Shown: positions 33,769 to 45,898 of the stretch, piece after piece
Layout: the number at the start of each line of letters is the position of its first letter
Position numbering within the stretch: the first letter of the stretch is position 1
Source of the DNA: a bacterium
Lineage (GTDB): Bacteria; Vulcanimicrobiota; Xenobia; Xenobiales; JADMJV01
DNA length: 64,000 bases
Reading direction: 5' to 3'
Assembly (NCBI GenBank): GCA_018266105.1
Contig: JAFEBA010000127.1
Coordinates: forward strand, 1,425-65,424
Translations under genes and position numbers: made by a program
Notes under the pieces: model-generated
Told to the model about the DNA's origin: nothing
The model's input: only the letters and a program-made list of their open reading frames with translations
Database searches by the model: none

Positions 33769-34971
33769 CTACCCTGAGGGAAGGTTCGCCTGGAATCGAG
33801 GGCCTGGCTGCGAAATCAGGCTCCGCCAGCCCTGAACATAGTCCTCGAGCAAGTTTTGTTCCTGGTCAAGCTCACCGCCGTAGCGCATGGCCACAAAAAT
33901 TCGGTCGTTCAACTGGGTCAAACCCACGGCCACTCCCGTGCGTGACTGCAGCGGCGGCGCTCCCAGCACTCTCTCCACCAGCACGTCGCCGACCTTGAGT
34001 TTGCCCGCCAGGCTTGGAAAGTGGGGGCGGGTCAGGTAGACCTTGCCCATGTTGGTCAGAATGGCTGTGGAAAATTGGGGCGGAAGCCACCGAAGCAGCG
34101 GCATCAGTCTCACCCGGTCAAGCGCCCCAAAGGCCAGCAGGGTGAGCAGATCCGGACGAAACTGTTTGATGAATTCGGTCTCGCCGCAGAGCTCGGCATA
34201 GGCCCGCTGGCTGACGAACGCGAAGCTCGTTCCATTGCAGGCCCCGCTGCGGAAATCGGCCGCCCGCCGAGTATTCATTGGCATCATCAAGCGCTTTTTA
34301 GCCTTGGGCCAGTGCTTTTCCAGAGTGGTAAAGAGACAATGTAAGGCCAGATCGTTCAGACTTCCTCCGTGGCGCCGCACCCAGGCCTGGCTGGCGGCCA
34401 GGTCGACCCACCCCCAGCTGGGATCACGGGTCGGGCCTTTTCCCTCAAACGGTCGGAACGGACGCGTGCACAAAAATTGGGCGGCGAATTTCAGGCTCTG
34501 CCAGATTGAACTGGTGCGTTCCGGTCCCAGTGCCCGCCCCCGAGCGACCAGTCTTTCGGGTTCGACGGGTGCCCAAGGCTGTGGTCGTCCGCCCACGGCT
34601 TCGTCATAAGCTTGACTGAAATCGCGCAGCAGCATCTGGGCGCCCGCGCCGTCACAAACGGCGTGATGAAACTCGGCCCGCAGCCTCTGCGGGTGGAAGG
34701 CTACCCTCAGTCCGGGCTCACGCTCAAGGTCCATGGGCTGGGGCGGTAGTTCCTCCAGCAGGGCCAGGGGTTCTCTCGATTCCATCCAATTTTTTTTGCG
34801 ATTGTCTAGCCGACAGGTTAAGAGCGGATGGCGCAGGAGGGCCCGGTTCAGGGCCGTGGTGACCACCTCTGGCCGGAGAGACCCTTCAATCGCCCACTCG
34901 ACTCGAAAGCTATTGCCTTCGAAGAGCAGCATCGCCTTCTCAAAAGGGGTCAGCGCCAGGGGAAAGAGCAT
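33769..34971 (-). CDS. Stand-alone condensation-domain protein (NRPS C-domain / PapA5 / WS-DGAT-like acyltransferase)
   Basis: Canonical HHxxxDG active-site motif FHHAVCDGAGAQ; ~400 aa CAT-like fold size. Confidence 0.7.
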   Translation of the reverse strand: MLFPLALTPFEKAMLLFEGNSFRVEWAIEGSLRPEVVTTALNRALLRHPLLTCRLDNRKKNWMESREPLALLEELPPQPMDLEREPGLRVAFHPQRLRAEFHHAVCDGAGAQMLLRDFSQAYDEAVGGRPQPWAPVEPERLVARGRALGPERTSSIWQSLKFAAQFLCTRPFRPFEGKGPTRDPSWGWVDLAASQAWVRRHGGSLNDLALHCLFTTLEKHWPKAKKRLMMPMNTRRAADFRSGACNGTSFAFVSQRAYAELCGETEFIKQFRPDLLTLLAFGALDRVRLMPLLRWLPPQFSTAILTNMGKVYLTRPHFPSLAGKLKVGDVLVERVLGAPPLQSRTGVAVGLTQLNDRIFVAMRYGGELDQEQNLLEDYVQGWRSLISQPGPRFQANLPSG

Positions 34972-35034
34972 GGCGGCGCACTTAAGGGGACAGGCAACAG
35001 GAACCTTCCTCCAGGCCTAAAATCTGGCCAACCC

Positions 35035-36309
35035 ATGTCATGTATCCTGCTCACTGGCGCCACCGGCCTCATCGGCAGCTTTATCTTGCGCGAGTTGCTG
35101 GGCCAGGGCCTGTCGGTCGCCGTTCTGGCGCGCGGACCCAAGGCCCGGGAACGTCTTGAGCGGCATCTGGTGCGACTGGAAGCCTCCGGTCAGGTCACGG
35201 TTTTGGAGGGGGATCTGGGTCAGGTCGACTTGGGCCTGCAGCCTGAGGCTCGCAAATGGCTGGCCAACCACTGCGGCCGTGTGTTGAACTGCGCGGGCGC
35301 TGTCAAATTTCACGCCGACGGGACGGGCGAACCTTATCGGACCAATCTGGACGGGACGCGACACCTGCTGCATTTGTGTCGTCAATTGAAAATCCAGGAG
35401 TTTCATCACGTCTCTACCGCCTACGTCTGCGGCCAGCGGCGCGGACCGGTGTGCCAGGAGGAGCTCGACGAAGGCCAGAGCTTTTCCAACGACTACGAGC
35501 GCAGTAAGTTCCTGTCCGAAGTGCTGGTGCGGCAGACCGAGGACATTCCCGTCAGAAACATCTACCGTCCCTCGGTCGTTCTGGGCGAGGCTGCCACAGG
35601 TTTCACTCCTGGCTTTCAAGGCGCCTACGCCTTGCTGCTGGCCGGCTGGCTGAAAGTGCAACAAGGCGTTGGGCTCGACCAGTTTTTGAGTTTACTCCAT
35701 CTCCGACGAGAAGATAGCATCAACCTGGTCACGGCTGACTGGGTCGCACAGGCGATCCTGCACCATCTGCTCCGTCCTGCCCAGGGCCTGCACTGCTTTC
35801 ACCTAACCCACCCCCGGCCCACTCGCTGGGCCGATCTTTACCAGGCCTTGTTGGACTGCGCTCCTTCGGCTGCTTTCATCGGTTCCGATTCGCTGGAGAG
35901 CAATGGTTTGCTGGAAGCCTACGCCTCCTACTTTTGCAACCATCCCGAGTTCGTGCCGGGCCAGTATGCCAGCGACTGCCCCGCGCTGGACCTGGCGGTG
36001 TTGGTACGCTACCCCATCGAACGGGCTTTTCTCGTCGAGGAAGAGCAACCTGTGGATCAACTTGTGGCCCAGTTGCCGCCCTGCTCCTACCCTGTGACCC
36101 TGGAGATTGCCGGTCAGGGCCGATGGGCACTTGGGGGTGCGCCCGACCAACCTGGTCTGGCCAATGCCTTCTGCTCAGGTCGCACTTTTCATTTGCTGCG
36201 ACAGGGGCGGTTGAGCCTCGAAGCGGCACTGTATTCGGGTCAGCTTCTGCTCGAGGGCGAAGAGTTCGACAAGGTCCGAACGTGCCTGGCTCAGGTGCTC
36301 CAGCCTTGA
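35035..36309 (+). CDS. Stand-alone thioester-reductase (R) domain protein (SDR-e, fatty acyl reductase-like)
   Basis: ILLTGATGLIGSFILRELL Rossmann motif at the N-terminus; YxxSK-type region; ~424 aa. Stop TGA overlaps the putative TTG start of the PKS. Confidence 0.8.
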   Translation: MSCILLTGATGLIGSFILRELLGQGLSVAVLARGPKARERLERHLVRLEASGQVTVLEGDLGQVDLGLQPEARKWLANHCGRVLNCAGAVKFHADGTGEPYRTNLDGTRHLLHLCRQLKIQEFHHVSTAYVCGQRRGPVCQEELDEGQSFSNDYERSKFLSEVLVRQTEDIPVRNIYRPSVVLGEAATGFTPGFQGAYALLLAGWLKVQQGVGLDQFLSLLHLRREDSINLVTADWVAQAILHHLLRPAQGLHCFHLTHPRPTRWADLYQALLDCAPSAAFIGSDSLESNGLLEAYASYFCNHPEFVPGQYASDCPALDLAVLVRYPIERAFLVEEEQPVDQLVAQLPPCSYPVTLEIAGQGRWALGGAPDQPGLANAFCSGRTFHLLRQGRLSLEAALYSGQLLLEGEEFDKVRTCLAQVLQP

Positions 36310-44799: not shown

Positions 44800-44803
44800 G
44801 CCC

Positions 44804-45898
44804 GTGTATCAAAGCCAGGGTCCATCACCCCATGCGTTGACCCCGGAGGCATACTGGCGGCCCGAGGCTCACCAAAAGGATTGCCAGATCCTCGAGCGCG
44901 CCTGGCATCTGGTGGGCAGCACTCATGACCTGGCCCGCCCAGGGGATTTTCTCACCTGCAATCTGTTGGGACACCCGCTGATGGTGCGCAACTTCCGTGG
45001 CCAACTGCGCGCCCTTTCCAACGTCTGCGCTCACCGACATTGTCTGATCAGTTCGAGAAGTCGGGGCCACAGCCCGACCATGCGTTGTCAGTATCACGGT
45101 TGGGAGTATTCTTCTCAGGGCCGCCCTTGTAAAATTCCCGCTCCGCAGAACTTTGTGCCCTTTCCTGACCCACCTCCACAGTTGCCCGGCTACAGGTTGG
45201 AAACCGTGGGTCAGCTTGTTTTTGTGTGTTTGGACCGAGAAGCCCCCGGACTGGAGCAGCACCTGGGTCCTTACTACGAAATTTGCCAACAGGCTTTCGG
45301 ACCAGACTGGAATCTTTATTTGAGCTGGAATCCGGACTACCAGGCCAACTGGAAGGTGCCAGTGGAAAACTCTCTGGAGAGCTATCACGTGCCCTGCGTC
45401 CATCCCCATTCCTTCGGCGAGGACCCGGGGAGCCAGCGCAGCCAGCACCAGTTTTTTGCTAATGGCAGCAGCTTCAGCACGCGCCTGCCTTTCGCCCATA
45501 GCCGGCTTGACCTGGCCTTTCAGCGTTGCGAGGGCACGGTGGTGGAATGGTTGCAAGGGGCGCGCAGCGACGCCTACACTCAGGTGCACATTTTTCCCAA
45601 CCTGCTATTCTCTTTTACAGACGCCATCAGTCTGTGCCAGTGCCTGCTTCCTTGCGGCCCGACCCGTTCTCGGGCGGTGGTGCTCCAGTTCAGTCGGCGG
45701 GGGCAGGGGGCCTGGAAAGAAATTTTGGCGGGCGCCTGGGGCCGACTGAAAGGACGCATTACTCACTGGATTCTGCGCGAAGATCAAAGCCTCTTTGAGG
45801 CCATACAAAAGGGCCTGGAGGCCAGCAGCCAGCCCGGAGTGCTGGGCATTTGTGAGGAACGTATCGCCGCTTTTCAGCGCCACCTGTTGCAGGACTAG
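44804..45898 (+). CDS. Rieske [2Fe-2S] non-heme iron oxygenase, alpha-subunit-like
   Basis: Rieske motif CAHRHCLIS...(17)...CQYHGWEY. Candidate mononuclear-iron His residues downstream (ESYHVPCVHPH). GTG start 5 nt after the GT1 stop. Confidence 0.8.
   Translation: MYQSQGPSPHALTPEAYWRPEAHQKDCQILERAWHLVGSTHDLARPGDFLTCNLLGHPLMVRNFRGQLRALSNVCAHRHCLISSRSRGHSPTMRCQYHGWEYSSQGRPCKIPAPQNFVPFPDPPPQLPGYRLETVGQLVFVCLDREAPGLEQHLGPYYEICQQAFGPDWNLYLSWNPDYQANWKVPVENSLESYHVPCVHPHSFGEDPGSQRSQHQFFANGSSFSTRLPFAHSRLDLAFQRCEGTVVEWLQGARSDAYTQVHIFPNLLFSFTDAISLCQCLLPCGPTRSRAVVLQFSRRGQGAWKEILAGAWGRLKGRITHWILREDQSLFEAIQKGLEASSQPGVLGICEERIAAFQRHLLQD

Follow-up and report, generated by a model that had tools for sequence, protein, structure and literature searches.

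A compact polyunsaturated-fatty-acid-synthase-like locus of an Eremiobacterota bacterium, probably for an envelope glycolipid

Secondary lipids with a known product that are made by synthases resembling polyunsaturated fatty acid (PUFA) synthases amount to a handful, namely the PUFAs themselves, heterocyst glycolipids, Azotobacter phenolic lipids and zeamines (PMC13291983). In the descriptive text of Shulse and Allen (2011), such synthases possess at least one ketosynthase (KS), an acyl carrier protein (ACP) and a ketoreductase (KR), together with combinations of a malonyl-CoA acyltransferase or acyltransferase (MAT/AT), a chain-length factor (CLF), a dehydratase (DH), an enoyl reductase (ER) and a phosphopantetheinyl transferase (PPTase) (PMC3098273). 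The heterocyst glycolipid (Hgl) synthase is their “Type F”, HglC having the arrangement KS-CLF-AT (PMC3098273), and the Hgl island of the Nostocales includes HglE, HglB/HetM and HglT (PMC3098273, PMC11804610). Outside cyanobacteria such loci are covered by the antiSMASH category “hglE-KS” (PMC13190842), and the zeamine/fabclavine polyamine synthases combine a PUFA-like synthase with a thioester reductase and an aminotransferase (PMC5811116, PMC13291983). Here we describe a six-gene locus within a 64,000-nucleotide stretch of contig JAFEBA010000127.1 (the window), which is probably a secondary-lipid operon of an Eremiobacterota bacterium making an envelope glycolipid.

An original prediction, made from the DNA letters, had placed six genes with defined domains at this locus, and all six were confirmed as long open reading frames (ORFs) with strong domain matches (33769-45898). 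Moreover, the window genes agree with an independent gene prediction for the identical contig in public data (Logan SRR24111707, 201 kb). The six genes are:

33769-34971, minus strand, PapA5/condensation-superfamily acyltransferase (“C-like”), 400 aa, HHAVCDG
35035-36309, plus strand, free-standing thioester reductase (R), 424 aa, NAD_binding_4
36306-42830, plus strand, iterative type I synthase KS/CLF/AT/ACP/psiKR-KR/DH, TTG start, 2174 aa (identical protein P0001)
42827-43585, plus strand, FabL-type enoyl-ACP reductase (earlier “SDR”, short-chain dehydrogenase/reductase), 252 aa, Y-x6-K
43582-44799, plus strand, CAZy-GT1-type (MGT/EryCIII-like) glycosyltransferase, 405 aa
44804-45898, plus strand, alpha-only Rieske non-heme-iron oxygenase, 364 aa

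A divergent spacer of 63 bp separates the acyltransferase gene from the reductase gene. The TGA of the reductase overlaps the TTG start of the synthase (TTGA), and GTGA overlaps join the synthase to the ER gene and the ER gene to GT1. These stop/start overlaps had all been foreseen, whereas the gap between GT1 and the Rieske gene, given earlier as 5 nt, is 4 nt; likewise the synthase is as long as announced save for one residue, its length being 2174 aa and not 2175. After the Rieske gene, a polyprenyl-phosphate glycosyl-1-phosphate transferase gene (Bac_transf) follows on the same strand at 41 nt. The genes for the reductase, synthase, ER, GT1, Rieske oxygenase, Bac_transf and Wzy_C share a strand, and no gap between them exceeds 61 nt; the widest is that between Bac_transf and the called Wzy_C start at 46688. 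Scanning for promoters and terminators gave no signal above shuffled sequence, and terminator-like sites between 33000 and 49000 were not in excess (20 found vs 16.5 ± 4.5 in shuffles); the operon structure is therefore read from overlaps and spacing only.

The synthase carries the following domains, KS, CLF and AT succeeding one another within residues 1-1160:

36327-37685, plus strand, KS domain (ketoacyl-synt, Ketoacyl-synt_C, KAsynt_C_assoc; C201, H333, H371)
37686-38900, plus strand, CLF-like, predicted inactive KS (Pfam ketoacyl-synt, N-terminal half only, 86 bits; Glu649 at the Cys position)
38919-39749, plus strand, acyltransferase, malonyl-type (Acyl_transf_1, 117 bits; GHSFGE, conserved Arg980, GALH)
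39993-40190, plus strand, single ACP (PP-binding, 31.8 bits; LGIDSIKR, Ser1259)
40206-41825, plus strand, psiKR-KR (KR at aa 1621-1840, Pfam KR 113 bits; GGARGIT, YSLAN)
42045-42827, plus strand, polyketide synthase (PKS)-type dehydratase (PKS_DH_N 31.5 bits, PS-DH 26.5 bits; HCMQNQPVLP)

The order KS/CLF-like/AT/ACP/KR/DH, proposed earlier for a single polypeptide, is supported by these domain matches and motifs. The KS triad C201/H333/H371 is invariant in 17 of 17 relatives. A possible weak point named in advance was the second KS-like region, which is nevertheless a true CLF, predicted from its sequence to be inactive in the 17 close relatives. Here the column equivalent to the catalytic Cys holds Glu in seven, Asp in four, Gly in two and Gln, Thr, Ala or Ser in one each, and never Cys; the C-terminal KS half with its two histidines is not matched by Pfam, and the His positions do not align in the relatives. 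Searched alone, the CLF segment has as its top solved-structure match 6riw, labelled only “ORF10” in the database, which we take to be a PfaC-type KS-CLF didomain. The 6riw match forms one stretch over residues 8-675 of the 870-residue query, covering the KS and about 215 residues of the KS-like region. Residue 649 itself (window 38250-38252) belongs to a position that is acidic (E or D) in 11 of the 17 relatives and Gln in one; KSQ domains and type II chain-length factors have Gln at this position, unlike the synthase.

Among single-domain NCBIfam models the AT is matched best by MdcH (179 bits) and FabD (171 bits). In the ACP, D1258, S1259 and I1260 are invariant among relatives, as are His1928 and Asp2092 of the DH. 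A segment of about 310 residues before the KR has no Pfam match, yet is conserved in 120 of 120 homologues and is probably a structural subdomain of the KR. The Pfam domain search detected neither a FabA-type dehydratase nor an ER domain in the synthase. The earlier statement that every catalytic activity is compressed into one megasynthase was therefore wrong, enoyl reduction being most likely supplied by a separate adjacent gene.

That gene had been taken to encode a tailoring SDR, a reading that was not borne out. The catalytic motif of its product, HYGLIGASK, has the spacing Y-x6-K, which is that of the FabI/FabL enoyl reductases, Y-x3-K being the spacing of classical SDR ketoreductases. 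FabL is the best match both among NCBIfam models (NF005975, 250.5 bits; next model 174) and among solved structures (B. subtilis FabL 3oic, 172 bits; next, a FabG, 123 bits), and Y-x6-K is kept in 43 of 46 ER family members. Co-occurrence was counted over 33 loci in which the synthase is complete and the flanks span 4 kb or more, and the ER gene is the most conserved neighbour of the synthase (30/33 loci, 45-72% identity). No NMO/PfaD-type ER was matched in the scanned window ORFs of at least 200 aa, nor in any annotated relative locus. Judging from motif and matches, the protein is most likely an enoyl-ACP reductase of the FabL type, providing in trans the single activity that the synthase does without. 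Because the motif is present and the score lies below the equivalog cut-off, we call it FabL-like and not a FabL equivalog.

The protein encoded upstream of the synthase could, as the original prediction acknowledged, have been a sugar epimerase. Its best Pfam family is NAD_binding_4 (144 bits, cut-off 20.1) vs 71 bits for Epimerase, the motifs TGATGLIG and YERSK are present, and each of the four solved relatives is a domain for reductive release or carboxylate reduction: MxaA (4u7w), a PKS R domain (8v1x), a carboxylic acid reductase (CAR, 5mso) and the Mycobacterium tuberculosis (Mtb) non-ribosomal peptide (NRP) R domain (4dqv). The assignment as a free-standing thioester reductase is thus supported by sequence. 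No PP-binding domain was found in it with Pfam. Its gene accompanies the synthase in 29/33 loci, further copies being fused or missed by the span filter. Although release domains normally sit at the C-terminus of a synthase, the reductase is fused to the synthase N-terminus in 5 of 120 homologues (P0033, P0074, P0105, P0106 and P0116), in keeping with the free-standing gene of the window, which lies upstream. An SCP2-like C-terminus was also considered for this protein. The last 124 residues gave no Pfam match even at an E of 5, and the idea was dropped because the length of the tail fits an ordinary reductase C-terminal subdomain.

The locus is a member of a large uncharacterised family and not a one-off. 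In a scan of species-representative genomes, family-specific KS peptides were found in at least 585 loci, Planctomycetota making up most of the 80 best. All of the 120 best homologues share the architecture KS-CLF-AT-ACP(1-5)-KR(1-2)-DH, of which the window synthase is the minimal form. The closest synthase proteins are only 58%, 51% and 49% identical, and full-length relatives with a single ACP occur in metagenome-assembled genomes (MAGs) of Vulcanimicrobiota (= Eremiobacterota), Xenobia, Gemmatimonadaceae and Longimicrobiales; the family members nearest to the window are those of Eremiobacterota and Gemmatimonadota. The conserved core consists of the reductase, the synthase and the FabL-type ER; the PapA5-like and Rieske genes are common (22/33 and 19/33 loci, respectively) and GT1 is peripheral. 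Unusual features of the family are its single KS-CLF synthase, the borrowed FabL-type ER and the reductase placed upstream or fused N-terminally.

Beyond this core, the tailoring genes were examined individually. The prediction of a GT1-type glycosyltransferase is upheld by an intact sugar-nucleotide motif (HHGGIGT...PLAHDQFDNA) and by Pfam matches to EryCIII-like_C, Glyco_tran_28_C and UDPGT. Its solved relatives are natural-product and sterol GT1s (Kcn28, OleD/OleI, CalG and a sterol glucosyltransferase), covering macrolide, enediyne, sterol and glycopeptide glycosyltransferases. Orthologues of about 36% identity were found only in loci L003/L006 and L005.

The acyltransferase has its HHAVCDG motif at residues 102-108. 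A word-indexed homologue search returned four proteins only, and the family was assembled from ORFs in the related loci. In the resulting alignment (A2) Condensation matches 29/32 members, PapA_C 16/32 and WS_DGAT 5/32, and HHxxxDG is kept in 29/34 relatives. The family profile matches condensation (C) domains of non-ribosomal peptide synthetases (NRPS) and PapA5 (8s6l, 66.7 bits, E 1.4e-17; also 1q9j). Motif and profile together support, at the level of sequence, the membership of the window enzyme in the PapA5/condensation-superfamily O-acyltransferases, as had been proposed for a PapA5/condensation-type enzyme with an intact HHxxxDG. The neighbouring methyltransferase and GT4 genes were likewise confirmed beside it:

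30748-31800, plus strand, GT4 glycosyltransferase, peripheral, probable sugar elaboration (Glyco_trans_1_4, Glycos_transf_1; weak NCBIfam lipid-/EPS-type GT4s; EPS, exopolysaccharide)
31761-32909, minus strand, GT4, last gene of the divergent C-like/methyltransferase/GT4 unit (Glycos_transf_1 93 bits, Glyco_trans_4_4; 382 aa)
32966-33757, minus strand, S-adenosylmethionine (SAM)-dependent methyltransferase (Methyltransf_25, Methyltransf_31)

GT4 genes adjoin the cassette in about 12/33 related loci, and methyltransferases of other families stand beside it in L002, L003, L089 and L091. The Rieske oxygenase matches Pfam Rieske and Ring_hydroxyl_A, and its predicted 2Fe-2S ligands (C75, H77, C95 and H98) and 2-His-1-carboxylate residues (H195, H200 and D327) are invariant in 27 relatives. 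Against solved structures its profile retrieved only ring-hydroxylating and alpha-only oxygenases of a generic kind, which give no hint of the substrate, and no beta subunit or redox partner is encoded nearby.

The unequal distribution of these genes bears on the idea that the product is a non-glycosylated neutral lipid, such as a fatty alcohol, a wax ester or a diol diester like phthiocerol dimycocerosate (PDIM). Part of the chains would then be reduced to an alcohol or diol, the Rieske oxygenase would add a hydroxyl and the PapA5-like enzyme would esterify it with further ACP-bound chains, the GT1 and GT4 enzymes serving the polysaccharide pathway only. Consistent with this, conservation of the PapA5-like and Rieske genes far exceeds that of GT1 (4/33), the acyltransferase family profile matches PapA5, and in L086 and L074 the cassette has beside it an MMPL transporter, the transporter type used in PDIM export. 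Indeed, with the former two genes common and GT1 rare, the family core gives no less support to a wax-ester or PDIM-like lipid than to an alkyl glycoside. In the window, however, the GT1 start overlaps the ER stop, the GT1 gene is inserted between ER and Rieske genes, and the same GT1 recurs beside the cassette in L003/L006 and L005. Moreover, the acceptors of CAZy-GT1 enzymes of this type are small lipophilic molecules and not sugars linked to undecaprenyl pyrophosphate (Und-PP). A neutral lipid is, in our assessment, unlikely as the product of this locus, if far from negligible.

Directly downstream of the cassette lies a set of envelope polysaccharide genes:

45940-46626, plus strand, polyprenyl-phosphate glycosyl-1-phosphate transferase (Bac_transf 171 bits; TIGR03025/TIGR03022; 69% to the syntenic L088 gene)
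46688-47896, plus strand, Wzy_C-family membrane protein, polymerase or ligase (Wzy_C 58.5 bits; no NCBIfam match)
47771-48568, minus strand, WecG/TagA/CpsF-family glycosyltransferase (Glyco_tran_WecG 192 bits; TIGR00696; 65% to L088)
48565-49740, minus strand, Wzz/GNVR-like chain-length determinant (weak GNVR/Wzz; TIGR03007 52 bits; 60% to the L088 Wzz-annotated gene)
49764-52223, minus strand, Wza-type outer-membrane polysaccharide export protein (Poly_export, SLBB; 68% to L088)
52323-53618, plus strand, Wzx/MOP-family flippase (Polysacc_synt; NF041871 weak; syntenic in L088 and L005)

By their sequences these genes look conventional and polyprenyl-phosphate dependent. The link between cassette and polysaccharide genes, which had been suggested from the window, is supported by its retention in relatives. 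In L088, a Vulcanimicrobiota MAG, the order is acyltransferase (divergent), reductase, synthase, ER, Bac_transf, Wzy_C, WecG, Wzz, Wza, ..., Wzx, which is the gene order of the window minus GT1 and Rieske; the EPS proteins of the two loci are 55-69% identical and the synthases 45%. All examined single-ACP relatives sit among glycosyltransferase, Wzx/Wzy/Wza or sulfotransferase genes; L002-L005 and L089-L091 are all amid glycosyltransferases, most of them with Wzx/Wzy/Wza/Wzc genes. Beside the cassette of L088, L089, L087, L031 and L037 there is likewise a Wzy_C gene.

This synteny raises the question of whether the lipid could be the membrane anchor or alternative carrier of the adjacent Wzx/Wzy polysaccharide, with Wzy_C acting as a WaaL-like ligase to give a lipoglycan resembling lipopolysaccharide (LPS) on a polyketide-type anchor. 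The unbroken strand from the reductase to Wzy_C, with its short gaps and terminator-like sites not above chance, is in keeping with such a role, as is L088, where the cassette is kept with Bac_transf, Wzy_C, WecG, Wzz, Wza and Wzx. In the planctomycete loci L031 (21662-23050), L037 (20527-21918) and L087 (21488-22891), furthermore, Wzy_C directly follows the PapA5-like gene and no full Wzx/Wzy set is visible nearby. On the other hand, the window offers no candidate repeat-unit polymerase other than the Wzy_C protein, so that an ordinary Wzy polymerase is the more economical reading; the Bac_transf protein matches ordinary polyprenyl-phosphate transferases; adjacency of genes is common in envelope islands; and many family loci carry no polysaccharide genes at all. 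We consider the anchor role decidedly unlikely, and its broader form, a polyketide-anchored LPS-like lipoglycan common to Eremiobacterota and some Planctomycetota, improbable at best.

A further alternative, in place of a structural lipid, is a secreted small-molecule polyketide, for example a glycosylated polyene or antibiotic. The likeness of GT1 to macrolide and enediyne glycosyltransferases, a P450 gene 7 kb upstream, and a KS equally similar to the solved PfaC-type KS and to the KS domains of modular PKSs could all be read in this way. Nevertheless, the locus has a single module whose KS-CLF pair and conserved trans ER point to a reduced aliphatic chain, and it lacks a cyclase, thioesterase or further module. 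The abundance of the family in species-representative genomes and its Planctomycetota-rich best matches fit a structural lipid better, and the P450 is not conserved in any relative. A secreted polyketide is therefore very improbable. The P450 gene (27028-28332) has terpene-type oxygenases as its best models, all far below cut-off; it is followed at 28324-30728 by three ORFs without family matches, one with a low-complexity Gly/Met/Pro-rich N-terminus and a weak CHAP match. We excluded the P450 and these three ORFs as members of the cluster, as none is conserved beside the cassette in any relative.

For the envelope glycolipid that we favour, the following route can be proposed. A malonyl-derived chain would be extended iteratively on the single ACP by the active KS with its inactive CLF, the malonyl-type AT, the KR and the PKS-type DH. 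The translationally coupled FabL-type reductase, which is not of the FMN-dependent PfaD type, would perform enoyl reduction in trans, so that the chain should be largely saturated. The upstream, coupled thioester reductase would then release the ACP-bound acyl chain as an aldehyde or alcohol. Of this scheme, the core enzymology of chain extension and reductive release is well supported by the predicted domains. The later steps are proposed more tentatively: GT1 may glycosylate the resulting alcohol, the PapA5-like enzyme may esterify a hydroxyl group on the alcohol or the sugar with an acyl chain taken from the ACP, the Rieske oxygenase may hydroxylate or desaturate the alkyl chain, and the GT4 enzymes and methyltransferase may elaborate the head group. 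The lipid would go to the envelope with, or serving, the presumably co-transcribed Wzx/Wzy/Wza polysaccharide system. We infer the order of the steps, a four-electron over a two-electron reduction, and the acceptors of GT1 and the acyltransferase. A chain length of C26-C34, the hydroxylation pattern and the actual product are conjectural.

Several observations weigh against this interpretation. In sequence, the KS resembles the one solved Pfa-type KS no more than it does KS domains of modular PKSs, and in the DH motif HCMQNQPVLP an Asn replaces the Gly of the family and of the canonical motif. Three proteins score below the thresholds of their families: the acyltransferase, taken alone, on Pfam Condensation (25 bits, cut-off 30.6), the reductase on TIGR01746 (122 bits, cut-off 213) and the ER on NF005975 (cut-off 328). 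GT1 occurs in only 4/33 loci, three of them non-redundant, and glycosylation by GT1 is for this reason not a family trait; the GT4 enzymes could simply belong to the EPS pathway. Neither a PPTase nor an electron-transfer partner for the Rieske oxygenase is encoded in the window, and literature searches found no characterised family member with a known product; a 2026 survey still names just a few secondary lipids of known product.

The host is an uncultured soil-type Eremiobacterota bacterium. A flanking gene for a pyridoxal phosphate (PLP) enzyme has its best named relative in Ca. Eremiobacterota (86% identity), a non-cyanobacterial affiliation that bears out the non-heterocyst context asserted at the outset.

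Related loci show additional genes beside the cassette. In L086, from the cultured planctomycete Blastopirellula marina DSM 3645 (CH672376.1, 10001-29115), the core is followed by genes for a class-III aminotransferase, an AMP-ligase and a C-domain protein, which suggests a fatty-amine or amide product in this branch; an MMPL transporter lies upstream of the cassette and L074 likewise has an adjoining MMPL. Sulfotransferase or PAPS (3'-phosphoadenosine-5'-phosphosulfate)-synthesis genes (CysN/C, CysD-like) are found beside the cassette in L003 (22422-23318), L089 (19543-20337) and L091 (5550-8438), a hint of sulfated lipids or glycans in these lineages; none is present in the window. B12-binding or radical-SAM enzymes, of the DUF4070 type in two of three cases, adjoin it in L002 (5053-6600), L004 (17657-19315) and L090 (17724-19145) and may serve C-methylation or another modification of the alkyl chain. 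In some family loci an ABC1 kinase, MMPL or Wzy_C gene comes after the acyltransferase.

Elsewhere in the window, all on the plus strand, are a signalling trio at 112-5821, made up of a protein with an FHA domain, a Ser/Thr protein kinase and a HEAT-repeat protein of 1037 aa that also bears a cyclic-nucleotide-binding domain; genes for cytochrome c assembly (ResB/CcsB-like and CcsA-like) after a gene for a 693-aa tetratricopeptide-repeat (TPR) protein (19538-22908), a housekeeping context; and, at 60091-62550, an 819-aa bacterial homologue of the eukaryotic major vault protein (MVP), with the vault domains MVP_shoulder (94.9 bits) and Vault_3 (42.5 bits).

Identification of the product would give a lipid class to a widespread cassette and would inform on the envelopes of scarcely cultured phyla. 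The 12-kb version in the window is compact and convenient for heterologous expression, and Blastopirellula marina is a tractable organism in which to look for the product of the family. Other cultured carriers are Thalassoroseus pseudoceratinae (L087), Planctopirus hydrillae (L033) and Bremerella species.

Set against described systems, the locus comes close to the Hgl system in several respects. As had been noted from the DNA, it has the KS-CLF-AT arrangement of HglC, and it shares with Hgl a PUFA-synthase-like iterative build-up of the chain, reductive release by a thioester reductase, a glycosyltransferase and, in our proposal, the envelope as destination. HglE is a PfaA-like subunit of the form KS-MAT-ACPn-KR, the HglB/HetM thioester reductase carries an ACP of its own, and both the Pfa and Hgl systems use a PfaD-type ER. 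The window, in contrast, has one polypeptide with one active KS and a CLF, where HglE and HglC together provide two active KS domains, and domain scans revealed no second KS gene in the window. Its synthase has one ACP, its ER is of the FabL-type SDR class, and its reductase, encoded upstream of the synthase, lacks an ACP. The locus has PapA5-like and Rieske genes in addition, and the host belongs to Eremiobacterota and is not a heterocyst-forming cyanobacterium. The glycosyltransferase is of the CAZy GT1/EryCIII-like type, a comparison made at the level of glycosyltransferase type. No ABC or membrane fusion protein (MFP) exporter genes, such as those for DevBCA/HgdBC, were found in the window, which has Wzx and Wza instead. 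The locus shares the logic of heterocyst glycolipid synthesis and is not a member of the Hgl system.

The likeness to the zeamine/fabclavine systems lies in a synthase for a secondary lipid with release of the chain by a thioester reductase, and the relative L086 goes further, with genes for an aminotransferase, an AMP-ligase and a C-domain protein after that for the reductase. The window has no aminotransferase or NRPS and differs in architecture and ER type. With mycobacterial PDIM synthesis (Mas/PpsA-E, PapA5 and MmpL7) it has in common a stand-alone HHxxxDG acyltransferase beside an iterative reducing synthase and, in some relatives, MMPL transporters. The synthase shows no sequence-level orthology to that system and the acyltransferase lies below the Pfam cut-off. 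Bacillus FabL (PDB 3oic) resembles the window ER in its Y-x6-K motif and in being its best solved and NCBIfam match; the Bacillus enzyme serves the housekeeping type II fatty acid synthesis (FAS II), while the ER of the window appears dedicated to a type I synthase to which it is translationally coupled. A tblastn search of plasmids with KS-CLF-AT was uninformative, giving at most 33% identity to generic “type I PKS” proteins and one unannotated KS-CLF-AT in Azospirillum.

With the Pfa PUFA synthases (PfaA-E) the locus shares the KS-CLF didomain, a PfaA-like tail of ACP-KR-DH with a PKS-type DH, and iterative use of malonyl units. It differs from them in having no FabA-type DH/isomerase pair, for which reason no cis double bonds are expected, and in the absence of tandem ACPs and PfaD; its release is predicted to be reductive, that of Pfa being by transfer or hydrolysis. 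The synthase scores 510.8 bits on TIGR02813 (PfaA), well under the cut-off of 1010.1, and the locus is not a Pfa PUFA synthase. The domain inventory of Shulse and Allen for secondary lipid synthases is found here as KS, CLF, AT, ACP, KR and DH on one protein and the ER as a trans partner. By the text descriptions, none of their Types A-T has the architecture seen in the window (PMC3098273). The locus is of the PUFA-synthase-like secondary lipid synthase type, in variant form.

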